Source: Myxococcota bacterium
GTDB taxonomy: Bacteria; Myxococcota_A; UBA9160; SZUA-336
Length of the DNA: 64,000 nt
Reading direction: 5' to 3'
NCBI GenBank assembly: GCA_965247115.1
Contig: CBDFGR010000003.1
Span: forward strand, 800,001-864,000
Positions 1 to 40,591 of this stretch are shown here, in pieces; position 1 is the stretch's first letter, and each line of letters starts with the position of its first letter. The position numbers and the translations under genes are program-made. The notes beneath the pieces were generated by a model. The model ran no database searches, was not told the origin of the DNA, and saw nothing but the letters and a program-made list of their open reading frames with translations.

Positions 1-224
1 TCCTCAGTGGTCTCGGGAACCTTCAATGCAAGGGAAGCCAGATGCTCGCAGTCCTCTCTGCGCATTGGAAAGCGCAACTCGATCTCGTTCCGCTGGGCCA
101 CGAACCAAAGCGTCCTGTCATCCAATTCGAATCGGAGCGTCTCGACGTTCAACGGAAACCGCACCATCCCCTCGGGACCATGAAAGAATGAGGGGAAAGG
201 AGAAGAAGGAGGCATGCGCTTCAT
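1..224 (-). CDS. Phage hypothetical protein, runs off the left edge (MKRMPPSS...LRFELDDRTLWFVAQRNEIELRF...)
   Basis: ATG at 224 overlaps the stop of 221..538 (ATGA); frame open to position 1 by manual translation. Confidence 0.45.
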   Translation of the reverse strand, partial: MKRMPPSSPFPSFFHGPEGMVRFPLNVETLRFELDDRTLWFVAQRNEIELRFPMRREDCEHLASLALKVPETTE

Positions 225-538
225 AGCGGCCTCCGCACCCACCACCGGATCTCCATGCCCTGTTGGGCGTCACGTCGAATCGGCGCGTTCCCATCCACGT
301 ACTTCGAGGTGTCTGCGAGCTCGGGAAGCCTCCGACCCATGACGTACCGAGAGATCCCCGACAGTTGAGAGAGCCGTCGCGAGCTACGGCCCGGCCAGCG
401 GACCGCCGCCTCATAGCACTCACGACGCTGCGTCTGGGCCTGCCCCGATCGCTCCACCCGACGGGCAGCAAGCTTGGACGAGTCGTGGTTTGACTTACGG
501 GCGAGAGCGTGAGGGCCGAACAGACTCTCTTGCCTCAT
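221..538 (-). CDS. Phage winged-HTH DNA-binding protein
   Basis: 'SSKLAARR...SSRRLSQLSGISRYVMGRRLPELAD' pattern typical of small phage wHTH proteins; ATGA-coupled start. Confidence 0.7.
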   Translation of the reverse strand: MRQESLFGPHALARKSNHDSSKLAARRVERSGQAQTQRRECYEAAVRWPGRSSRRLSQLSGISRYVMGRRLPELADTSKYVDGNAPIRRDAQQGMEIRWWVRRPL

Positions 539-812
539 GCAGCGGCTCTTTCCGCGTCTTCGCAGCCAGGAGCTCGAGCTGTAGAAGCGGCGTCACGTAG
601 TCCAAGCGCGTGACCATGATGGCGATGGGGAGAACGGCTGCGGGGAGCCGTCGGCGCCCGTCCGCTCGCAGCCAGTGGGAGACGTTCGTGAGGGCCGACT
701 CTACGCTGCCCTCCCAAGAAAAGGCTGCGCGGCACGCGAGGGCAAAGTGCAACCAGGTGTCGGAATCGTCCAACATCTTCCGAACGGCACGCTCGATTTC
801 GACAGTTTCCAC
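495..812 (-). CDS. Phage regulatory protein, possibly CII-like
   Basis: GAGGT SD 8 nt before GTG; helical 105-aa protein downstream of cro in the early operon. Confidence 0.55.
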   Translation of the reverse strand: METVEIERAVRKMLDDSDTWLHFALACRAAFSWEGSVESALTNVSHWLRADGRRRLPAAVLPIAIMVTRLDYVTPLLQLELLAAKTRKEPLHEARESVRPSRSRP

Positions 813-1380
813 TGGGGGTTACCTCACTTTCGCCCCCACGAAGTTTCTGTTGGCCGTACTTGGCCCTACTCGCGCGTAAGAATGAAGTCCGATGCTTCCG
901 ACCACCCACCCCTCGTGTAGAATGCTTGGTAGCTACACCGAGACAGGGGCGGGGGAGAGAACTATGAACAGCAGAAGAATCGTTGCCCTCTGCGTGATCC
1001 TCTCGACGATCGGCTGCGTGAATCTCAGACAGCGCGACCGCGAAACCCTCCGAGACATCGAGCGCTACGACCTGAATCCCACGGAGATTCAGATCAAGAA
1101 CGCCGGTCTCGCAGGTGGCCTCGGGATCATATCTCCGGTCTGCAACTGGTATCTCGCATACGGCACGCACCAAACCGATCAGATCCTCGTGGGTTTTCTG
1201 AACCTGCTGACCTGGCCTCTCAGTGTTATCTGGGCGATTCCGCAGTGCGCGGCGGACGCCTTGACGCTGAACAAGCTTGAGACCATCGACTACTACGAAG
1301 ACGATCGTGACGGCATTCGGGAGTTCGCTGCTGCACGTGAACGCTACGAAGGGTCGCACCGGGACGAAGAGTGACCTCAC
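535..1380 (-). CDS. Operon-strand ORF spanning the inverted lipoprotein gene (possible bridge ORF)
   Basis: GGAGGGGG SD before GTG at 1380; GTGA overlap with 1377..1928 and ATGA overlap with 221..538; product not recognisable. Confidence 0.3.
   Translation of the reverse strand: MRSLFVPVRPFVAFTCSSELPNAVTIVFVVVDGLKLVQRQGVRRALRNRPDNTERPGQQVQKTHEDLIGLVRAVCEIPVADRRYDPEATCETGVLDLNLRGIQVVALDVSEGFAVALSEIHAADRREDHAEGNDSSAVHSSLPRPCLGVATKHSTRGVGGRKHRTSFLRASRAKYGQQKLRGGESEVTPSGNCRNRACRSEDVGRFRHLVALCPRVPRSLFLGGQRRVGPHERLPLAASGRAPTAPRSRSPHRHHGHALGLRDAASTARAPGCEDAERAAA
964..1374 (+). CDS. Prophage accessory lipoprotein/membrane protein, inverted relative to the cro operon
   Basis: GGAG SD; signal peptide with lipobox MNSRRIVALCVILSTIG-C; two hydrophobic segments resembling a TM2-like arrangement. 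Confidence 0.75.
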   Translation: MNSRRIVALCVILSTIGCVNLRQRDRETLRDIERYDLNPTEIQIKNAGLAGGLGIISPVCNWYLAYGTHQTDQILVGFLNLLTWPLSVIWAIPQCAADALTLNKLETIDYYEDDRDGIREFAAARERYEGSHRDEE

Positions 1381-1928
1381 GCCGCCCCCTCCGCTGCGGC
1401 AGTGACGAGAGTGAGGGATGCATGCAACGCCGGTAGAAGGCCGCCTTTACGATGAGCCTCGCAAACCTCTTGATAGGCATTGCTGCCGCGCTCGGCGCGC
1501 TTCTCGCTGCCGGGGGAGCGATCGCCAGCGCTATCCTCATACGGAAGTCGCACCGCGCGGCTACGATCGAAGATCGGCAACCCGTCCTCGAGACTACGCT
1601 GATCCGCTATCGCGAGCCGAACGTCGCGAAGGTCACGATTCGGGTTCGGAATTGCGACCGAGAACGAATCAACTTTGTCCGTCTCGAGGTCGTAAGCCCA
1701 GAGTCGGTGCGCTTCTTCGATTTCGACACCGACCCGTTCGGTCGTCCACAGCCACACGGGGAGCCCCACGACTGGGTACATCCGAGCTGCAGTATCGAGC
1801 CAGCCGACTATGAAGATCGAGAGTTCCTTCTTCAATGGACAGGCGAAGAACTCGCGCCAACCCGGGTTGAGCTTGTCGCATATTTCGATAGTCGCGCCGC
1901 GTACATCGAGAAGACAGGGGCGGGTCAC
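1377..1928 (-). CDS. Operon-strand ORF spanning the inverted membrane-anchored gene (possible bridge ORF)
   Basis: GTG overlaps the cro stop (GTGA 1925-1928); ends AAAEGAA, which encodes the SD of the next ORF. Confidence 0.3.
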   Translation of the reverse strand: MTRPCLLDVRGATIEICDKLNPGWREFFACPLKKELSIFIVGWLDTAARMYPVVGLPVWLWTTERVGVEIEEAHRLWAYDLETDKVDSFSVAIPNPNRDLRDVRLAIADQRSLEDGLPIFDRSRAVRLPYEDSAGDRSPGSEKRAERGSNAYQEVCEAHRKGGLLPALHASLTLVTAAAEGAA

Positions 1929-2033
1929 GGAGAGCGCTCGACTCGTTCGGAGTGCTGGTCAGCGCCGAACGGCGGCCCGCTCCTGAGTAGGTCTTCCGGA
2001 GTGATACCCAGGGTTGCTAGTTGGTCTCGATAA
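1452..2033 (+). CDS. Prophage accessory protein with N-terminal transmembrane helix and beta-rich domain (inverted)
   Basis: LLIGIAAALGALLAAGGAIASAILI followed by RK; alternating beta-strand pattern; 3' end overlaps cro antisense. Confidence 0.6.
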   Translation: MSLANLLIGIAAALGALLAAGGAIASAILIRKSHRAATIEDRQPVLETTLIRYREPNVAKVTIRVRNCDRERINFVRLEVVSPESVRFFDFDTDPFGRPQPHGEPHDWVHPSCSIEPADYEDREFLLQWTGEELAPTRVELVAYFDSRAAYIEKTGAGHGERSTRSECWSAPNGGPLLSRSSGVIPRVASWSR

Positions 2034-2188
2034 AGATCGATGAGCCTGACCATGATCCGCCGACTCATCGCGTTTCGCCCCGTTTCGTACATCGTCACGG
2101 CGGCCGGATCCACGCCCAGTTTTGCCGCAAGAGCCGCTTGGGTGATGCCGAGCGTCTGCCTGAGACGCTTCAGCGGATGAGAACTCAT
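1925..2188 (-). CDS. Cro-like HTH_XRE regulator
   Basis: LKRLRQTLGITQAALAAKLGVDPAAVTMYETG is a canonical HTH_3 motif; divergent from the cI-like gene. Confidence 0.85.
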   Translation of the reverse strand: MSSHPLKRLRQTLGITQAALAAKLGVDPAAVTMYETGRNAMSRRIMVRLIDLYRDQLATLGITPEDLLRSGPPFGADQHSERVERSP

Positions 2189-2196
2189 AAGCACAC

Positions 2197-2225
2197 ATTA
2201 CAACTCATGATGGTGGCGGTGTCAA
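2197..2225 (-). promoter_or_regulatory. Sigma70 promoter for cro (TTGACA-17-TGTAAT), overlapped by a candidate operator
   Basis: Minus strand TTGACA (2225-2220), 17-nt spacer, TGTAAT (2202-2197); inverted repeat ATGGTG/CACCAT at 2210-2215 and 2227-2232. Confidence 0.7.
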
Positions 2226-2271
2226 TCACCATGTACCAAGCTCTGCGGCCTTAGCTAATCTCTGCTTACTG

Positions 2272-2784
2272 ATGGCTCGACGCATAAAGCAACGCAGAGA
2301 GATTCCGACTTTTGGGCAGGAACTCAAAGAAGCTCGCGAAGCCCTGGGGCTGACCCAGGAGGAATTCGGCGATGCAGTCGACATCTCCCAGTCAGCCGTA
2401 TCGCAGTTGGAGAGCGGGAAGAACGAAGCCGCTGTCGGAACGAAGTTCAAGATCTTCGAGTTTTTGTCTGCGCGAGCGGACTTCCTGAAAGAACGCGGAC
2501 TCGACTACAGGACGGCCATCTCCCTCAACATGAAGAAGGACGCCCCCGAAGTCTATGAGTCGCTGCAGAAAGTACTTAGGGACCAGGCCCGAGCGGTAGC
2601 CGAGCATCTGATCGACGAGATCGGAGCTAGCCGGGTGATCACTCTCGCGTTTGTACCCCCAGACGAGCTCTCCAATTGGATCGATACCCATGAGGAGGCG
2701 AACTACAGGGAGGAGCAGGCGTATCAGCTCTCTAAGGACCTCTCACTCGGGCCATCACCAAAAAAGAAGCCAGAATCCGAATAG
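2272..2784 (+). CDS. cI-like HTH_XRE repressor
   Basis: LKEAREALGLTQEEFGDAVDISQSAVSQLESG HTH motif; divergent from cro; no S24 peptidase motif seen. Confidence 0.85.
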   Translation: MARRIKQRREIPTFGQELKEAREALGLTQEEFGDAVDISQSAVSQLESGKNEAAVGTKFKIFEFLSARADFLKERGLDYRTAISLNMKKDAPEVYESLQKVLRDQARAVAEHLIDEIGASRVITLAFVPPDELSNWIDTHEEANYREEQAYQLSKDLSLGPSPKKKPESE

Positions 2785-2826
2785 GCGGCTTGACCGTGTC
2801 TCTTATTTTACGTAATTATCACTTAT

Positions 2827-3291
2827 ATGCGCGGGGCAACTCTCGACCCGAGGCAGCGTCCTCTCCCTGACCGTCTCGCCCAGCTGGACTCTCTGCACCT
2901 GGACAGGGGTGTCTCCTCGAGCTTCGACGAAGGCCACTGCGCACTCGAAGTGGTCGCCTGGCTCGCAGGAGAGGAGCACAGCGACCATCCGCAGTGCACG
3001 AGTACCGCGGTTGGAGCCTTCGTCCGCTGCTGGAATGACGACCTTTCAGACGAGGATCGGGACCGTCTGCTCAAGCCACTGCTCCCCCGCCTTGTGGGAT
3101 CGGCAGGAGATTCCGACACGGAGATCGCCCGCTCCTACCTAGCCCTCGACTGGCTCTGTCGAATCTATACACCCGCATGGCTAGACCTCGTAGAAAGCCT
3201 GAAACCTCATGCCGCGAAGCTGCGTGGACTCGGCGAGATCACGGACCTCGATGTCCACGTCCAGTCGGAGTGCGACGAGTGCCGGCGCTAG
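2827..3291 (+). CDS. Truncated paralog of the Ala-rich repeat phage protein (N-terminal domain only)
   Basis: About 92% nucleotide identity to 4314-4721 by manual alignment; frame intact; lacks the repeat tail. Confidence 0.7.
   Translation: MRGATLDPRQRPLPDRLAQLDSLHLDRGVSSSFDEGHCALEVVAWLAGEEHSDHPQCTSTAVGAFVRCWNDDLSDEDRDRLLKPLLPRLVGSAGDSDTEIARSYLALDWLCRIYTPAWLDLVESLKPHAAKLRGLGEITDLDVHVQSECDECRR
2840..3250 (+). repeat. Direct repeat copy 1 (411 bp)
   Basis: Matches 4314-4721 with about 31 substitutions and one 3-bp indel (manual count). Confidence 0.95.
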
Positions 3292-4289
3292 AAGAGCTCC
3301 GATTGTCGCGGCATTCGGTGCTCGATCACCTCTGTGACCGTGCGGGAGAGATGGAGTTTGCCCTCCCCGTCCACCGATTGCTCGACGCTCATACGGACTC
3401 GGAGCTGGTCTCCACTTCGGAAGGGCTCGCGCTTAGTCACCTGTGTGACAAAGCCGGGATCTTCCATCTTGACCAAGAAGACATTGGCACCATCGGAGAC
3501 GCGCCACTGATAGCCGCGCCCAGAGATGTCTGGCTGGAGAATCTCCAAGACCTGAACCACCTCATAAGCTGCTTCTTGTGCAGCAGCTATCTGTCGTGGG
3601 CCACCCTCAGTAATCCTCGCGTAGTCGGCAGCGTCCAAAGATTCGACGACTTCACTGCCTTCCATTGCTTGGAAGAGTTCGACTCCTTGGCGAGCAAGCG
3701 GCTTCAACACCTCGTCCAGTGCTGTTACGGTCGTCGTGTCGTTGTACAGGTTTCGCACGTTTCGATGGAGCCGCAGCGTGCGTCCGTCCGGCGCAGTGGC
3801 CTCAATCTCTTCATCAATCTCGACGTATTGCATCTGCTCTGCCTTGCCTACTGTCTTTACAAGACTAAGGAGACCACTTGCAACCGAGCCAGACTTCTTG
3901 ATGAACCCCAGTGTAGTCAAGAGTTGGTTCGCGTCCGACCCCATCAGTGTGTTGACAATCCCGGCGATGTCCAGAACGAGCGAGATATCGAAAGACCTAG
4001 CTCTAACATCTGCTCGCATTCGAACGGTAGCGGCCGTCTCTCGACCATTGATGAGCAGATTTGTCCGCTCACAGATATCGCCCACAGCCTGAAGAGTCGG
4101 TGCCAGCGCGCGAACATCCATTTCGCCAGCCTCAAGTTCTGGCCCGGTGTAAACCAAGCGCAGTACGGCTTCGCTCATCGCGCTACGTCCTCCTGTCCGG
4201 CTGATATCTCTCAGGGGGATAGCGGGCCGACCGGGTCTAGCGGTCGGCCCGCAACAGACTCTAGCACTCAACTACAGGAGATAGTGTAG
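3279..4289 (+). CDS. Operon-strand ORF spanning the inverted 296-aa gene (possible bridge ORF)
   Basis: GGAG 8 nt before GTG 3279; stop-free across the whole inverted gene; ends 2 nt before ATG 4292. Confidence 0.3.
   Translation: MPALEELRLSRHSVLDHLCDRAGEMEFALPVHRLLDAHTDSELVSTSEGLALSHLCDKAGIFHLDQEDIGTIGDAPLIAAPRDVWLENLQDLNHLISCFLCSSYLSWATLSNPRVVGSVQRFDDFTAFHCLEEFDSLASKRLQHLVQCCYGRRVVVQVSHVSMEPQRASVRRSGLNLFINLDVLHLLCLAYCLYKTKETTCNRARLLDEPQCSQELVRVRPHQCVDNPGDVQNERDIERPSSNICSHSNGSGRLSTIDEQICPLTDIAHSLKSRCQRANIHFASLKFWPGVNQAQYGFAHRATSSCPADISQGDSGPTGSSGRPATDSSTQLQEIV
3288..4178 (-). CDS. Inverted prophage accessory protein (296 aa), function unknown, possible defence or moron gene
   Basis: AGGAGG SD before ATG 4178; globular sequence LRLVYTGPELEAGEMDVRALAPTLQAV... 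with an OB-fold-like C-terminus; more A/T-ending codons than its neighbours. Confidence 0.85.
   Translation of the reverse strand: MSEAVLRLVYTGPELEAGEMDVRALAPTLQAVGDICERTNLLINGRETAATVRMRADVRARSFDISLVLDIAGIVNTLMGSDANQLLTTLGFIKKSGSVASGLLSLVKTVGKAEQMQYVEIDEEIEATAPDGRTLRLHRNVRNLYNDTTTVTALDEVLKPLARQGVELFQAMEGSEVVESLDAADYARITEGGPRQIAAAQEAAYEVVQVLEILQPDISGRGYQWRVSDGANVFLVKMEDPGFVTQVTKREPFRSGDQLRVRMSVEQSVDGEGKLHLSRTVTEVIEHRMPRQSELF
4222..4252. promoter_or_regulatory. Perfect 12-bp GC-rich hairpin between divergent starts
   Basis: GCGGGCCGACCG-ggtctag-CGGTCGGCCCGC. Confidence 0.6.
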
Positions 4290-4291
4290 AG

Positions 4292-5257
4292 ATGCCCGCT
4301 CCCGCCCCTTCCCCTCTCGACCCGAGGCGTCCTCTCCCCGACCGTCTCGCCCAGCTGGACGCTCTGCACCTGGACAGGGGTGTCTCCTCGAGCTTCGACG
4401 AAGGCCACTGCGCGCTCGAGGTGGTCGCCTGGCTCGCAGGGGAGGAGCACAGCGACCATCCGCAGTGCACGAGTGCCGTGGTCGGAGACTTCGTCCGCTG
4501 CTGGAATGACAACCTTTTAGACGAGGATCGAGACCGTCTGCTCAAGCCCCTGCTCCCCCGCCTCGTGGGATCGGAAGGAGATCCCGACACGGAGCTCGCC
4601 CGCTCCTACCTAGCCCTCGACTGGCTCTGCCGGGTCCATACGCCCGCATGGCTGGATCTCGTGGAGAGTCTGAGCCCGCATGCCGCGAAGCTGCGCGGAC
4701 TCGGCGAGATCACGGACCTCGTTCGTGCAAGCGCGGCGCAGCCGATGATCCGTGCTGCGAGGGAAGCTGCGGGGGACGCTGTGAGGGACGCTGCGGAGGT
4801 CGCTGCGTGGATCGCTGCGAGGGAAGCTGCGGGGGACGCTGCGAGGGACGCTGCGAGGGAAGCTGCGAGGGACGCTGTGGGGGCCGCTGCGGGGGCCGCT
4901 GCGAGGGACGCTGCGAGGGACGCTGCGAGGGACGCTGTGGGGGCCGCTGCGAGGGACGCTGCGAGGGACGCTGCGAGGGACGCTGTGGGGGCCGCTGCGG
5001 GGGCCGCTGCGAGGGACGCTGCGTGGGACGCTGTGGGGGCCGCTGCGGGGGCCGCTGCGAGGGACGCTGCGAGGGACGCTGCGGGGGACGCTGCGGGGGA
5101 CGCTGCGAGGGTCGCTGCGGGAGCCGCGGCGGGGGCCGATGCGAGGGTCACCGCGTGGGACGCTGCGAGTGCCGCGCTCGAGCCGACCGTGCTCACGCTC
5201 CAGGATTCGGCACGCGATCTCGTTTGTCGAATGCTCGCGGTGGGGGAGTCCGCATGA
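4292..5257 (+). CDS. Phage protein with conserved N-terminal domain and (AARD/AAGA/AAWD)n tetrapeptide repeat
   Basis: AGGAG SD; HCALEVVAWLAGEEHSDHPQC...RCWND motif; long Ala-rich repeat. Confidence 0.85.
   Translation: MPAPAPSPLDPRRPLPDRLAQLDALHLDRGVSSSFDEGHCALEVVAWLAGEEHSDHPQCTSAVVGDFVRCWNDNLLDEDRDRLLKPLLPRLVGSEGDPDTELARSYLALDWLCRVHTPAWLDLVESLSPHAAKLRGLGEITDLVRASAAQPMIRAAREAAGDAVRDAAEVAAWIAAREAAGDAARDAAREAARDAVGAAAGAAARDAARDAARDAVGAAARDAARDAARDAVGAAAGAAARDAAWDAVGAAAGAAARDAARDAAGDAAGDAARVAAGAAAGADARVTAWDAASAALEPTVLTLQDSARDLVCRMLAVGESA
4314..4721 (+). repeat. Direct repeat copy 2 (408 bp)
   Basis: Matches 2840-3250. Confidence 0.95.
4754..5170 (+). repeat. Tandem array of about 34 degenerate 12-bp units (consensus GCTGCGAGGGAC)
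   Basis: Directly visible; variants GCTGCGGGGGCC, GCTGTGGGGGCC, GCTGCGTGGGAC. Confidence 0.95.
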
Positions 5258-5288
5258 TGCGCCGTGCCGAGCGGGCCCGGAGGTCACG

Positions 5289-5516
5289 ATGCGACTGGAG
5301 GAGATCGTGAAGCGCCCTACGATGCGCGCGCGGAACCGTCGCGAGCTCGCGCACGGTCGCCGCGTTGCCCCGACGCCCGACGTGCCGATCGATCGCGCCC
5401 TCCTCGGACCTGAGCGCTGTGTCCTGTGCCGGGAAGAGGCCGCCGACGACATCACGGGCCTTGACGACAAGGGCGTGTGTCTCACCTGCCGAGCGGCCGC
5501 ACGGCTGCGGTTATGA
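5289..5516 (+). CDS. Small phage protein with CxxC...CxxC zinc-finger motif
   Basis: CVLC and CLTC; GGAGG SD; ATGA overlap with the next gene. Confidence 0.6.
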   Translation: MRLEEIVKRPTMRARNRRELAHGRRVAPTPDVPIDRALLGPERCVLCREEAADDITGLDDKGVCLTCRAAARLRL

Positions 5517-5737
5517 GCATCGAGATTATCGAGAGCCGGGCGCACCCCACGATGTGCGCGATGTACTGCACCACCTCCGACGTAGCCTTCGGGCCCGTGT
5601 TCACGTCCCATGAAGAGGCGGAGCGGTTCATCGCCTATTGCTGGCTCCAGACGGGCGATGACCCTCGGGGCGTCGAAGGGTGCGTCCTAGAGCGCCTGGT
5701 CACGGAGATGCGAAAAGAAGAGCCATGCGCCCTTTGA
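5513..5737 (+). CDS. Phage hypothetical protein
   Basis: ATGA-coupled start; MSIEIIESRAHPTMCAMYCTTSDVAFGPVF. Confidence 0.65.
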   Translation: MSIEIIESRAHPTMCAMYCTTSDVAFGPVFTSHEEAERFIAYCWLQTGDDPRGVEGCVLERLVTEMRKEEPCAL

Positions 5738-5895
5738 TAGTCGCGCCCAAGCCCTTCCCGCGCGTCCCGCAAGACCTCCGCGAATTGCTCGCGGAAATCG
5801 ACCTCTATCTCGCGCAGCGAGAGCGTCAAGCGCGGCTGGAACGGCCGCAGCTCCGCGACCTGCGCGCACGAATCCAACGAGAACTCACGAAGTAA
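5725..5895 (+). CDS. Small helical phage hypothetical protein
   Basis: Fills the gap in the operon; amphipathic helix. Confidence 0.55.
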   Translation: MRPLIVAPKPFPRVPQDLRELLAEIDLYLAQRERQARLERPQLRDLRARIQRELTK

Positions 5896-5907
5896 AGGAG
5901 AGATGCC

Positions 5908-6705
5908 GTGAGCATGTTAGATCAGGTCACCACAGGAAGAACGATCCGGCCCCCGCGGATCGTCATTCATGGCAGAGGAGGAGTCGGCAAGACGACCTTC
6001 GGCGCGAGTACGCCGAATCCGATCTTCCTGCCTGCAGAAGAGGGACTCGGCACGCTCGACGTGCCTCATGTTCCCATTCCCACGAGCTACGCCGAGATCC
6101 TCGAGACGATCACGGATCTGCAACGTCAGGAGCACGTCTACCGAACCCTCGTCATCGACACGATCGACCACGTCGAGCCTCTCGTCTGGGAGGAGACGTG
6201 TCGTCGCATGTCCGAGGGGGGGCGGAAGACGTACGAGCACGTCGAGGATTTTGGGTATCAGAAGGGCTACCTGTTCGCCGATCGCGAGTGGACGCAGCTC
6301 TTTCACGCGCTGGACGCGATCCGACGCGACCCCGGCATGATGATCGTCGTGCTCTCCCACAACGAGAGCAAGACGTTCGAAGATCCGGTGATCGGTCCCT
6401 ACGACCGCGTCACTCCGAAGCTCCACAAGCGAGCGAACGCGCTGCTCTACGAGTGGGCGGACATCGTCGGCTACCTGGAGATCCAGCGAGCCACGATCGA
6501 GAAGGAGGGCGCGAAGAGTCGGAAGGTGCGCACCAGCGCCACAACCGGCACGCGCGAGCTCTTTCTCGAAGACACCGGAGCCTTCATCGCGAAGAACCGC
6601 TACGGGCTTCCGATCCGCATCGAGGTGCCCCAGGCCAACCCTTACACCCCGCTCCGTGAAGCGCTGAAGTCGGCGCTCGGAGTCCAGAAGCAGGAGGCCG
6701 CGTAA
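5908..6705 (+). CDS. Sak4-like AAA_24 ATPase (phage single-strand annealing protein)
   Basis: Walker A GRGGVGKT, Walker B LVIDTID, EWADIVGY and AKNRYGLP motifs. Confidence 0.9.
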   Translation: MSMLDQVTTGRTIRPPRIVIHGRGGVGKTTFGASTPNPIFLPAEEGLGTLDVPHVPIPTSYAEILETITDLQRQEHVYRTLVIDTIDHVEPLVWEETCRRMSEGGRKTYEHVEDFGYQKGYLFADREWTQLFHALDAIRRDPGMMIVVLSHNESKTFEDPVIGPYDRVTPKLHKRANALLYEWADIVGYLEIQRATIEKEGAKSRKVRTSATTGTRELFLEDTGAFIAKNRYGLPIRIEVPQANPYTPLREALKSALGVQKQEAA

Positions 6706-7209
6706 ATGCCACGCATCGGAGCAGCACTTCACGACGTAGAGGACAACGACATGCCGAGAGGAAGCTGGGTCGCTCTTGAGTCCGGCAAGTACCCGTTCAT
6801 GATTACCGACAGCGAGTACAAGCCGACGAAGAGGGGAGACGGGATGTGCTTGCACCTCACACTGCAGTGCATCCACCCAGATCACACCCGAGTAGAGCTG
6901 CGCGACTTTCTGACGCTCGAGCATCCCAATCCAGACACGGTCCGAATCGCGAAGGGTCGGCTGAAGCAGATCGGACTGGCCTGCAAGGTCAGGAATCCCG
7001 ACTTCATCCAGGACAGCGAGGAGCTCCACAACATCCCGTTTGTCGCCAGCGTCTCGAAGGAAGAGGCGGAGGATCCGAAGTACGGAGATGTGGACGGCTA
7101 CGAGAACCGGATTGCCAAGTACAAGCGGATCGACGGCAACGCCCCGATGTCCGAGCCACTGCCAGAGCAGTCGCAGCCTACTCGGGCCTCCGGGGACATC
7201 CTCTTCTGA
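6706..7209 (+). CDS. DUF669-like phage ssDNA-binding protein
   Basis: LESGKYPFMITDSEYKPTKRGDG motif, acidic tail ending DILF; follows the Sak4-like gene. Confidence 0.8.
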   Translation: MPRIGAALHDVEDNDMPRGSWVALESGKYPFMITDSEYKPTKRGDGMCLHLTLQCIHPDHTRVELRDFLTLEHPNPDTVRIAKGRLKQIGLACKVRNPDFIQDSEELHNIPFVASVSKEEAEDPKYGDVDGYENRIAKYKRIDGNAPMSEPLPEQSQPTRASGDILF

Positions 7210-7943
7210 TGGCCGAGCTCCCCCGCATCCGCAGTCCGCAGCCCCAGGTCGCCGACCGGATCTTCCGCGCCCTTGAGAGGCGGGAGGCCGATCGTCCGCG
7301 GAGCGGAAACCTCACCATGAGCGGCATCGGAGAGTGCGCTCGCCACCTCTGGGCCGAGCGAAACGAGCACTCGACGCCGAAATCCAGGCCAGGCCGGGTG
7401 CTCGCGACCTTCGAGTACGGAAACGCGACCGAGTCCCATGTGATCCGGCTCCTCCGCCTCGCGGACTACCTGATCGGGGCGGAGCAGCGTCGCGTCACCT
7501 GTGATCTCGGCGATGGACTCACACTGCGCGGCCGGATCGACGGAACGATCCTCCTCGGCAAGAAATATTCCGAACGGCTGGAGGCGCTGCTCGAGGTGAA
7601 AAGTGCGAAGGCGTCGCAGTTCGAGGAGTGCAAGGCGAAGGGCTACGAGAAGTGGAATCCGAAGTACGCGGACCAGCTGCAGATGTACATGGGCGCGGGA
7701 GGCTTCCACATCGCCCTTGCCTTCGTCTATTGCAAGGACATCTCCGAGCCCTACCCGGAGAAGATCCGCTTCGAGCCAGAGCGCTACGAGGCCCTGAAGG
7801 CGAAGGCACGTCTGATTCTCACCTCCGAGGAGCCGCCCAAGCGCCCCGACGAGGCGACATCCCAGTTCTGCAAGTTCTGCAAGTGGTGTGACGCGAACGA
7901 GTGGTGCTGGTCGCCCGTCGCGGAGACACGCTTCGACGACTAA
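7209..7943 (+). CDS. Cas4-like PD-(D/E)XK exonuclease with putative 4Fe-4S cysteines
   Basis: TGATG-coupled start; GECARHLW, GRIDG..LLEVKS, QLQMY, CKWC...C. Confidence 0.85.
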   Translation: MAELPRIRSPQPQVADRIFRALERREADRPRSGNLTMSGIGECARHLWAERNEHSTPKSRPGRVLATFEYGNATESHVIRLLRLADYLIGAEQRRVTCDLGDGLTLRGRIDGTILLGKKYSERLEALLEVKSAKASQFEECKAKGYEKWNPKYADQLQMYMGAGGFHIALAFVYCKDISEPYPEKIRFEPERYEALKAKARLILTSEEPPKRPDEATSQFCKFCKWCDANEWCWSPVAETRFDD

Positions 7944-8045
7944 GGGGAAGGGCTGTGGAAAGGAAGAATCGTCGCTGTCAGAGAGTCGGAGAGGGTTCGA
8001 ACCCTCAAAGAGCGTCGCGCCGACAGCAAGACGGGGCCTATCGAG

Positions 8046-8135
8046 ATGACCGTGTTCTGGCTTGGTCTCGGGGTCTTCCTCGCGCTGTTCTGTGTTGCGG
8101 CAATGAGCAAGCTATGGGCGCTGGTGCCGTGGTGA
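8046..8135 (+). CDS. 29-aa hydrophobic peptide MTVFWLGLGVFLALFCVAAMSKLWALVPW
   Basis: Manual translation; single TM helix; ends 1 nt before the integrase ATG. Confidence 0.4.
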   Translation: MTVFWLGLGVFLALFCVAAMSKLWALVPW

Positions 8136-8136
8136 G

Positions 8137-9351
8137 ATGACTTCATCTGTCCTCAGCCTTCGCCGCGAATTCACTACCCGCGCCCTGCTCGGACAGGGTA
8201 TACGGGTAGAGATGGCGCGCGATCTGTTCAATGTCCGACAACGCAAGGACTCGGGAGCTTGGTACGTCGATTGCCGGCCCTACGGGCGCATCCAGTGGAT
8301 CATGGTCGAGGAAGTCGGGAAGAAGCCTCTAGACGAGCAGATGGCCCACATGCTGCTTGCCTGGATCAGGGCAGAGATCGCGGGCGGAAAGTCTCCGAAA
8401 GAGGCTGTAGACCCCTATCTCCCGCGCCCGACAGCCCTCGTCCGAGATCGCCTGCCGGCCTGGCTTGAGATGATGAGCGACCAGGTCGAACGGGGGGATC
8501 GTAGCCCCACCTACCTGCGCGAGCTCGTGCGCTACGCGAAGCCGAGCGGCCACTTCTCGCCACTCTTCGAGGTCTCGACCTACGGGATCTCCTACGGCCT
8601 CATCGAGGACTGGACCAAGATCCTGGCCGATCGAGGCTTGGGGCAAAAGACCAGAACGAACGTCGTCGGTGCCTTCCATTCCTTCCTTGGCTGGCTGGTC
8701 AGTCGCGAGGAGATCTCAGCGGTCCCGAAGTTTCCGCCGCAGCCCAAGACCGTCCATCGCCCTCATATCATCCCGCCCGACGTACAGGACGCGATACTCA
8801 AGGAGATCCCCGAGCAAAAGCGCGGGGCCTTCATAACGTCTGTCGAACTCCTCCTCCGGCCTGGTGAGGTTCGCGCGCTCAACGTCGAGAACTACGACCG
8901 CCGAACCAGGGTCCTGTGCGTCGCCCACGCGATGAAAGGCCCCCGCAGAGACGCGCCTCGCAGGGAGACGAAGGAGGGCGACATCCGCTACCGCGAAGCC
9001 TCAGATCGCCTCCATGCTTGGATCGAGCGGTACGTGCCACTCCTGGCCGTCTACGAGGGCGAACGGCCGCTCTTCGCGAACCCGGATGCCAAGGCCGCGC
9101 TCAATCCCAGCAAGCGCTGGACACATGATCCGCTTCGAACGAACTGGAACGAAGCAGCGACACGAGCGGGGCATCCTGGCGTGCAACTCTACGAGGGCAC
9201 GAAGCACTCGACCGCGACTGCGCTGCGTCGCGCTGGTGTTCCACTCGATGTGATCCAGGCCGCTGCCGGACACAAAGACGTGCGCTCGACCGAGCGCTAC
9301 GCGCAGTTAGCCGACGATGTAGTCGCCGACGCCCTCAGGAAACGACGGTGA
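8137..9351 (+). CDS. Tyrosine recombinase/phage integrase (alternative start 8212)
   Basis: LLRPGEVRAL (Arg I), YEGTKHS box II variant, GHKDVRSTERY (His, Tyr); adjacent to att. Confidence 0.92.
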   Translation: MTSSVLSLRREFTTRALLGQGIRVEMARDLFNVRQRKDSGAWYVDCRPYGRIQWIMVEEVGKKPLDEQMAHMLLAWIRAEIAGGKSPKEAVDPYLPRPTALVRDRLPAWLEMMSDQVERGDRSPTYLRELVRYAKPSGHFSPLFEVSTYGISYGLIEDWTKILADRGLGQKTRTNVVGAFHSFLGWLVSREEISAVPKFPPQPKTVHRPHIIPPDVQDAILKEIPEQKRGAFITSVELLLRPGEVRALNVENYDRRTRVLCVAHAMKGPRRDAPRRETKEGDIRYREASDRLHAWIERYVPLLAVYEGERPLFANPDAKAALNPSKRWTHDPLRTNWNEAATRAGHPGVQLYEGTKHSTATALRRAGVPLDVIQAAAGHKDVRSTERYAQLADDVVADALRKRR

Positions 9352-39211: not shown

Positions 39212-40591
39212 ATGACAGCGATACAAGACGGGTTGAGTCAGGAAGAGATCAAGGACCTTCGTGAAAAGGCAGGGGAACATGTCTGGCTTCCCTATACACC
39301 GATCGCTGGGCACCACAATCCGGAAGTCATGCAGATCTTTGTTTCCGGAGAGGGTATCCGAGTCACAGATATCGATGGCAAAAGCTACATCGATGCTTTT
39401 GCAGGTCTGATGTACAAGGCCATTGGCTATGGCCGCGAGGAGGTCATCGACGCTGCTAATGAGCAGATGCATCAAATAGCGTCCTCGCCCATGTTTCATC
39501 ACGGAACGATTCCGGCGATTCGACTGGCAGCCAAACTGGCGGAGGTGACGCCGGGTAGTCTCTCTAGAGTTCATTACGTGACGGGAGGATCCGAAGCCAA
39601 CGAGGTTTCCGTCAAGATCGCAAAGCAATATCAGAAGCTTGCAGGTTTCAGTGGTCGGTACAAGATCATTGCGAGGGAAGGGGAGTACCACGGCTTCACT
39701 CATATGGCGATGGCCCTGGGCAAGGCCGGCGGGGGGATCTATTCGGTGTTCGAGCCCCTTACGCCTGGTGTTCGGCATATCCCCCACCCGTATTGTTATC
39801 GCTGCCCGCTGGGTTTGGAATACCCGAGTTGCGGTGTCGCCTGCGCTAAGTCGCTGGAGAGCACGATCCTCAATGAGGGTCCGGAGTCCGTGGCTGCGTT
39901 CCTCACTGCTTCGGTTTCCCAGCAGACTCCGATGGCTGTTCCTCCTCCCGAGTACTGGCCGATGATCAAATCCATCTGCGAAAAATACGGTGTTCTTTTC
40001 ATCGATGACGAGGTCGTTTGCGGATTCGGCCGAACCGGCGAGTGGTTCGGGATCGATAATTGGGACGTCGTACCGGACATCATGTCGATCGCCAAGGGGG
40101 TTACGAGCGGATACATGGCTCTCGGGGCCTCGATCGCCACGAAAGAAATCAGCGACCAGTTCGAGGAGGGTGGGGACATCCTTCGGAATGTGACGACATT
40201 CGGTGGAATGCCGGGGAGCTGTGCGGCCGGCTTGGCCAACCTGGAAATCATCGAGAACGAGAATTTGGTGGAGAGGGCAGCATCCCTGGGTACATACGTC
40301 TCGGAGCAGTTGCAGGCTTTGAACGACCACCCCCTGGTGGGAGACATTCGCGGATTGGGCCTGTTTTGGGGTATCGAATTGGTCAAGGACAAAGAGACCA
40401 AGGAACCGCTTCATCCACTGAAAGACGTCGCCAATATCACATCGAAGCTCAAAGAATTGGGGCTGATCACTCGGGTGGACAACGGTACGATCCGTTTCGT
40501 ACCACCTCTGGTCATCACCAAAGACGAGATCGACGAGACCATTACCATTTTTGATACGGCCATCGGCCAGCTCGAGAAGGAGCTGCTCTAG
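39212..40591 (+). CDS. Class III PLP aminotransferase
   Basis: GGSEAN, YHG, DEVVCGFGRTG, SIAKGVTSGY. Confidence 0.95.
   Translation: MTAIQDGLSQEEIKDLREKAGEHVWLPYTPIAGHHNPEVMQIFVSGEGIRVTDIDGKSYIDAFAGLMYKAIGYGREEVIDAANEQMHQIASSPMFHHGTIPAIRLAAKLAEVTPGSLSRVHYVTGGSEANEVSVKIAKQYQKLAGFSGRYKIIAREGEYHGFTHMAMALGKAGGGIYSVFEPLTPGVRHIPHPYCYRCPLGLEYPSCGVACAKSLESTILNEGPESVAAFLTASVSQQTPMAVPPPEYWPMIKSICEKYGVLFIDDEVVCGFGRTGEWFGIDNWDVVPDIMSIAKGVTSGYMALGASIATKEISDQFEEGGDILRNVTTFGGMPGSCAAGLANLEIIENENLVERAASLGTYVSEQLQALNDHPLVGDIRGLGLFWGIELVKDKETKEPLHPLKDVANITSKLKELGLITRVDNGTIRFVPPLVITKDEIDETITIFDTAIGQLEKELL

Follow-up and report, generated by a model that had tools for sequence, protein, structure and literature searches.

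A stop-free operon-strand frame crosses an inverted candidate defence gene in the early operon of a Myxococcota prophage

Introduction

Nested open reading frames are part of the regulated immunity switches of phages P4 (eta/kil) and P1 (icd), which also involve small RNAs. Their translation acts against premature termination of the transcript. Uncoupled translation exposes Rho sites on the nascent RNA and silences downstream genes, which is termed Rho polarity (PMC12360218), and Rho is reported to suppress antisense transcription (PMC12360218; PMC5909445).

Opposing genes close to a lysis-lysogeny switch have also been described. Prophages of Staphylococcus aureus contain noncontiguous operons such as tha/ith of phage 80alpha, where opposing transcripts are proposed to alternate between lysogeny and lysis (PMC11087260). 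For olg1/olg2 and gene 10 of Pseudomonas phage Fc02, the products of both strands are reported to be expressed and to give exclusion (PMC9936078).

Here we describe a locus in a 64,000-nucleotide stretch of DNA from a Myxococcota bacterium (the window; G000 C3:800001-864000). In gene order as read from the DNA, its layout is that of a noncontiguous operon. As in tha/ith, a prophage operon close to the switch encloses a gene on its antisense strand, and a (candidate) defence gene is involved. In tha/ith the defence gene shares the strand of the cI operon and is inhibited by the antisense gene; here the candidate defence gene is itself inverted and sits in a predicted lytic early operon. The available part of the tha/ith account makes no mention of an open operon-strand frame. 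With Fc02 the locus has in common that an early lytic operon next to the switch contains antisense overlap, in which a lysogeny-side gene faces an operon-side ORF; both frames are open and have start signals, as in pairs of the olg1/gene 10 type. Unlike in Fc02, the operon-strand product carries no sign of function. The locus also differs from the PDC-S42 family at large, to which the inverted gene belongs, since most members have a closed antisense frame. As in P4 eta/kil and P1 icd, and in protection from Rho polarity in general, translation of the ORF here would prevent premature termination rather than yield a product. Unlike in those phages, the frame runs antisense to a cargo gene that is unrelated and exchangeable.

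Results and Discussion

The early operon and its inverted gene

The prophage end covers window positions 1-9351. Several sibling prophages with related early regions are present in the same genome and were used as internal comparisons. Profile matches identified a cro-like HTH gene (1925-2194, minus strand) and a repressor-like HTH gene (2272-2784, plus strand). An AT-rich stretch with a sigma-70-like promoter match at 2790-2819 (plus) is likely the start of the early operon heading to the integrase; siblings have theirs at the same place, ahead of a single gene copy. It was the sole promoter-like match in 700-4800, a region in which shuffles average 0.9 matches, so that the count is at chance level. 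The first ATG, at 2827, has no Shine-Dalgarno motif and would possibly be a leaderless start. The gene order 2827(+), 3288-4178(-), 4292(+) nests an antisense gene between same-strand operon genes, and Sak4 (5908-6705), SSB (6706-7209) and integrase (8137-9351) genes follow downstream in the early operon. Because the sole promoter-like match lies before the ORF starting at 2827, the early transcript likely crosses the antisense of the inverted gene. The host has a rho gene, which scored above the family cut-off.

The inverted gene (3288-4178, minus strand, 296 aa; hereafter the cargo) is a real minus-strand gene, as the first-pass annotation had held for an accessory gene inverted in this operon. 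It matched the PADLOC profile PDC-S42 (PDLC05015) over residues 1-295 with E 1.9e-47, as did all 150 aligned relatives (150/150). Full-length matches were also obtained with NCBIfam NF053583 (LAPAL; 156 bits against a cut-off of 60, E 1.2e-45) and with phrog_3243 (E 1.5e-38). HMMER returned 1827 relatives at E<=0.001, the nearest of them at 47%; a word-index protein search returned the cargo only. A Shine-Dalgarno-like purine run with AGGAGG was found in the sequence at 4188-4194 (minus), upstream of the cargo ATG, so the minus strand has a strong Shine-Dalgarno motif at the cargo and no sigma-70 match. The predicted structure (pLDDT 89.2) has an alpha-beta N-terminal part and a C-terminal OB fold. 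Residues 200-292 are similar in structure to the OB folds found in proteins that bind single-stranded DNA (best Z 8.3, with an rmsd of 2.4 over 81 residues), a Z near the background level of the tool, and a shared fold shows no function. A search by sequence for a relative of solved structure found none. Membership in DUF7946 (PF25678), an Atlas neighbour of the cargo at 0.89 and a lead only, was rejected: the cargo has no Pfam match, and 6 of the 150 relatives matched this family weakly (best E 1.2e-4).

A defence role of the cargo is a lead, which makes it a candidate anti-phage gene carried by the prophage. PDC systems have been predicted on the grounds that they lie embedded within defence loci (Payne et al., bioRxiv 10.1101/2024.01.29.577857), and a search of the literature, in the texts it reached, found no paper with the term PDC-S42 and no activity test of S42. 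The NCBIfam name of NF053583, 'LAPAL motif-containing putative phage structural protein', differs from the defence role given by PADLOC. Members of the family often stand beside transposase-like ORFs (L035, L157, L210, L229, L005 and L162; by inspection, with one weak PHROG transposase match), which suggests that the family travels as a passenger gene in insertion sequences.

A potentially coupled stop-free frame on the operon strand

On the operon strand a stop-free frame of 336 codons runs from 3279 to 4289 (plus), in register with the cargo codons. GGAG at 3267-3270, an 8-nt spacer and GTG 3279 form a start signal (3267-3281) inside the last codons of 2827-3291. No stop interrupts the frame as far back as 3039, and from an ATG at 3177, upstream of the GTG, it measures 370 codons. 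The tetranucleotide CTAG at 3288-3291 holds the stops of both 2827-3291 and the cargo, and TAG 4287-4289 closes the plus frame 2 nt ahead of ATG 4292. Translation is thus potentially continuous from 2827 to 4292. Apart from the extension back to 3039 and ATG 3177, these sequence features had been reported by the first-pass annotation, and all of them are indeed present. The frame lies codon for codon antisense to the cargo and is open because the cargo has no TTA, CTA or TCA, an absence also reported before; none of these occurs among its 31 Leu and 17 Ser codons, at a GC3 of 0.61.

We propose, with a probability of about 0.5, that selection keeps a translatable in-register bridge frame stop-free against Rho polarity and that its product is irrelevant. 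A single transcript from near 2826 would run through some 1 kb antisense to the cargo, including a hairpin (described below), before entering 4292-9351, where it would serve Sak4, SSB and integrase genes presumably needed for recombination and excision. Left untranslated, the cargo-antisense stretch would be open to Rho. Ribosomes ending 2827-3291 would restart at GTG 3279, the open frame would keep the message covered, and the stop 2 nt before ATG 4292 would hand the ribosomes on. The cargo would have its own promoter, be expressed in the lysogen and be damped by the opposing lytic transcript. Such damping in lytic growth would be a separate consequence of the layout, which would require no open frame; the S. 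aureus prophages offer a precedent for it (PMC11087260). Exceptions would be allowed for cargo flanked by a terminator and a new promoter, or under an antiterminator. Avoidance of the three codons without conservation of the product is what the bridging model predicts and what is seen. Against the model, the operon strand over the cargo is only mildly C-rich, with a C/G ratio of 1.18 compared to 1.03 in Sak4 and 1.09 in the integrase gene.

Is the open frame more than chance?

The plus frame might instead be a chance shadow of the cargo. TTA, CTA and TCA are avoided wherever codon usage is GC-rich, a start-like codon easily overlaps a TGA stop, and the case was picked as an extreme. Indeed, host-average codon usage gave P=0.18 for an open frame, and the antisense frame is open in 187 of 866 called host genes of 250-350 codons. 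Homologs of the cargo with a GC3 above 0.75 were open in 10 of 16 cases in any context, and the 36-codon spacer was open in a third of shuffles. Likewise, one host gene (C3:839212) has no antisense stop where 5.2 were expected, and the surveys below revealed no deficit family-wide, genome-wide or in other phages. Against chance, the cargo is A-rich at four-fold sites (A at 35/130 third positions in the six other four-fold boxes) and has a GC3 of 0.61 (P 0.003-0.015). The host-fitted, GC3-matched model, fitted on the 2948 of 4096 host genes that passed a strand-confidence filter, expected 5.9 stops where none was observed (P=0.003, Poisson). The family-fitted model, based on 174 family representatives, expected 5.4 (P=0.004, Poisson; 0.015 with overdispersion). 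Among homologs at GC3 0.56-0.66, 2 of 33 were open, the gene of the window being one of the two. These gene calls come from our own codon and amino-acid models. The open antisense frame of the cargo is an outlier for its codon usage, though chosen as such. The held-out sibling ORFs, with zero stops (0 against 4.85 expected, see below), also speak against chance, which we hold to be less likely than bridging but the most serious rival to it.

The host gene mentioned above, C3:839212-840591 (window about 39212-40591, plus strand), has ~460 codons and a low GC3 and is co-oriented with its neighbours.

The plus-frame product is likely non-functional as a protein

An open frame could also encode a protein with a function of its own, such as inhibition of the cargo in the lytic phase or a further exclusion activity, so that the two strands would form a true antisense overlapping pair. 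The Shine-Dalgarno-like motif and start codon would fit this, and the accounts of olg1/gene 10 in Pseudomonas phage Fc02 (PMC9936078) and of Ith antisense to Tha (PMC11087260) offer precedents. The product itself speaks against it. Searches of Pfam, PHROG and NCBIfam found no family match for it, and its Atlas recognition was 931 (best hit 0.78) compared to 2713 for the cargo. The codon score per codon was -0.003 for the plus frame and +0.09 for the cargo. A single-sequence model reached a pLDDT of 34, which is weak evidence without an alignment. Profile searches of the two frames gave a family for the cargo and none for the plus product.

Homolog clusters revealed purifying constraint on the cargo frame only. 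In the ten-member cluster L132, changes by codon position of the cargo frame were 186/89/489, while the antisense frame had 112 synonymous and 479 non-synonymous changes. The comparison of both frames across homologs, suggested earlier, showed constraint for the cargo and none for its antisense in these clusters. Antisense identity was 39% where sense identity was 75%, and none of 15 long antisense ORFs of homologs matched a PHROG family. As two-frame constraint failed in the homologs, an overlapping protein pair of the olg1/gene 10 type has no support. We conclude that the plus-frame product is likely non-functional as a protein; a second functional plus-strand protein found no backing in families or clusters, and we rate this explanation as highly improbable.

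A mosaic cassette between two copies of an early gene

The ORF at 2827-3291 (plus) is not an ordinary upstream gene, a point that the first-pass annotation had missed. By blastn and by alignment with the sibling copies it is a truncated copy of the 5' half of 4292-5257 (plus), the full copy of an Ala-repeat early gene with PHROG matches of unknown function. Positions 2840-3250 matched 4314-4721 at 91.7% identity over 411 nt. The partial copy is fused in frame to an unrelated tail of 13 codons, and its stop overlaps that of the cargo. In the siblings, one copy of the Ala-repeat gene directly follows the promoter region, without cargo. Since 2827-3291 is mostly a copy of 4292-5257 and the siblings are single-copy and cargo-free, the cassette spans about 3251 to 4291. 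The AGGAG of gene 4292-5257 comes from the cassette end. Inside the bridging frame, a perfect 12-bp GC-rich hairpin lies at 4221-4251, with no U-tract on either strand (fold z -3.8 on the plus and -4.0 on the minus strand); terminator prediction gave no call for it.

An assembly artefact was rejected as the source of the duplication: the copies differ by 8%, and short-read contigs cover 3204-4329 and 3129-4391 with zero differences and span both junctions, although they come from the same single sample and are not independent support. A search for a close allele of the cassette found none in viral contigs (one weak partial match), in 301 genomes of the phylum (one weak match besides the own genome) or in 101 relatives (two matches, one full length). 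The junction motif had no exact match in the viral contigs. Queries with Sak4 and with the repeat gene gave one and seven loci, respectively.

The two copies diverge from each other (91.7%) as much as from the siblings (86-90%), and the cassette is a mosaic. This would fit an open frame that is a relic: selection would have favoured it while the cassette resided elsewhere (in a donor phage or element), and it would now be unneeded. A pair of cargo relatives points the same way. L147:3971-4942 has 2 in-register antisense stops where 17.5 were expected, the strongest outlier of the family, and L099:4001-4960 has 0 where 5.2 were expected. The two genes are 75% identical, with a GC3 of 0.26 versus 0.62, and the frame stayed nearly open through 187 third-position changes in 313 codons. 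Neither is inverted within an operon, so stop deficits can arise in other contexts. Repeats flanking L099 are presumably attC-like, judging from inspection. Since these repeats look co-oriented with the gene on inspection, L099 and L147 were rejected as inverted cassettes. The present arrangement argues against a relic. Owing to the fusion, 2827-3291 stays open and still overlaps GTG 3279, and the bridging frame stops where the next gene starts, as would be expected of a frame in use today. We regard a relic as improbable.

The Ala-repeat region (4292-5310) holds an array of a 12-nt unit whose length varies among siblings. The same strand has another long open frame there, at 4648-5310, which extends into the following gene and measures 450 codons in siblings. 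In the copy of sibling prophage 3, a 4-nt insertion at G000 C3:2638546-2638559 shifts the frame.

Inverted genes in the family, the host and other phages

The first-pass annotation had seen the same design in both arms of the switch and had inferred a general strategy for carrying antisense-embedded accessory cassettes. For the family survey, 247 cargo-family loci were collected, 13 without a near-full-length match were dropped, and the remaining 234 genes were reduced to 174 representatives, across which antisense stops tracked GC3. At 24 inverted loci, defined by our own gene calls as having both neighbours on the opposite strand, 158 stops were observed compared to 167.4 expected, and a family-wide conserved antisense ORF was rejected. 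Six of the 24 were open (2.0 expected), the window's locus included. Where both neighbours were PHROG-matched genes on the operon strand, one of six was open; read-through may be needless at those six loci because gaps of 77-685 nt leave room for a terminator. Ten of 15 inverted loci examined had stops in all three operon-strand frames. Homologs in the same context thus mostly carry antisense stops, and the general strategy did not survive this survey; what stood is the recurring geometry in sibling prophages of the same genome.

A stop deficit tied to tight convergent spacing was rejected as well, as 166 stops were observed at 16 tight convergent junctions and 151.7 were expected. No deficit was found for 458 inverted host genes (ratio 1.09). 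In 66 viral loci, 33 single genes were inverted by unverified gene calls, and these showed none either (153 stops, 156.5 expected). At L016, a Mu-like phage locus with the same cargo family, AGGAG precedes a TTG that overlaps the upstream TGA, and the frame ends 13 nt ahead of the next start; expected stops there were only 2.2. The effect looks specific to a lineage rather than common to the family.

Inverted ORFs in the cro arm of the window and its siblings

The cro arm of the window holds two inverted ORFs. The first, a cargo gene at 964-1374 (plus), has a lipoprotein-like N-terminus by inspection and is crossed in register by frame 535-1380 (minus), which starts at a Shine-Dalgarno-GTG signal overlapping the upstream TGA. 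A search for its relatives found none beyond its own cluster; one 33%-identical tblastn match, L020:5161-5394, lies just downstream of a PDC-S42 gene in a phage contig. The second, 1452-2033 (plus), is crossed in register by frame 1377-1928 (minus) and overlaps the cro 3' end by 109 nt (1925-2033). No relatives of it were found by search, and strand scores over the nested part are almost equal (0.10 versus 0.09), so that either strand may be the coding one. The tail with which cro terminates in the siblings forms the end of frame 1377-1928, which suggests that the ancestral end of cro was split by an insert.

The window and two siblings share the cro-arm arrangement of a common tail, GGAGG, a 7-nt spacer and a GTG overlapping the upstream TGA. 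From these GTGs, frames of 281, 325 and 447 codons cross three unrelated inverted ORFs in register. In a fourth prophage (C2), with a different junction, 227 codons are open and end 21 nt ahead of the next gene.

The stop model was applied to a held-out set, the sibling ORFs outside the sequence seen by the first-pass annotation, with the sib4 allele not counted separately. The four inverted ORFs in sibling cro arms had 0 stops where 4.85 were expected (P=0.008), and in three of the four the crossing frame begins at a Shine-Dalgarno-GTG signal that overlaps the stop upstream. As controls, 93 co-oriented prophage genes had 163 stops compared to 134 expected, which makes the model conservative for prophage genes. 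One of the four ORFs is doubtful, as changes by codon position between its two alleles (11/14/12) show no bias; without it, 3.66 stops were expected (P about 0.026). When a DoxX-like gene that is inverted in a prophage remnant and has 2 stops was included, P rose to 0.053. Homolog and family searches found no confirming match for the four ORFs, which read as membrane proteins by inspection. Three of the junctions share ancestry and count as one junction by descent. The stop deficit of real inverted cargo is probably a lineage-level constraint and not general.

Extending the bridging model beyond this locus, we tentatively suggest, at somewhat under even odds, that some temperate phage lineages take backward cargo in essential early operons only if its codon choice creates no stop on the operon strand; a bridge ORF without a useful product, coupled to its neighbours, would carry ribosomes through and prevent Rho polarity, and the same transcript would damp the defence cargo in lytic growth. 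If so, cargo that is exchanged at fixed insertion junctions would be under a hidden constraint in its synonymous codons, with loss of TTA, CTA and TCA as the predicted signature. It would also explain how defence and membrane genes expressed in lysogeny can be parked in lytic operons without cutting off the downstream genes. For annotators it would be a warning: an operon-strand ORF at such a site, however long and well coupled, may be translated and yet be meaningless as a protein. A literature search for product-less bridging frames, with poor coverage of subscription journals, found no paper, and no Rho or stop-codon terms were found in bioRxiv 2020.02.20.958058.

The cro-tail junction (window 1369-1399; G000 C1:6939 and C3:2639636) has abutting convergent stops and is a hot spot of variable cargo. 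In the three prophages at this junction, the inverted ORFs are unrelated and all end in Glu-stop at the same place.
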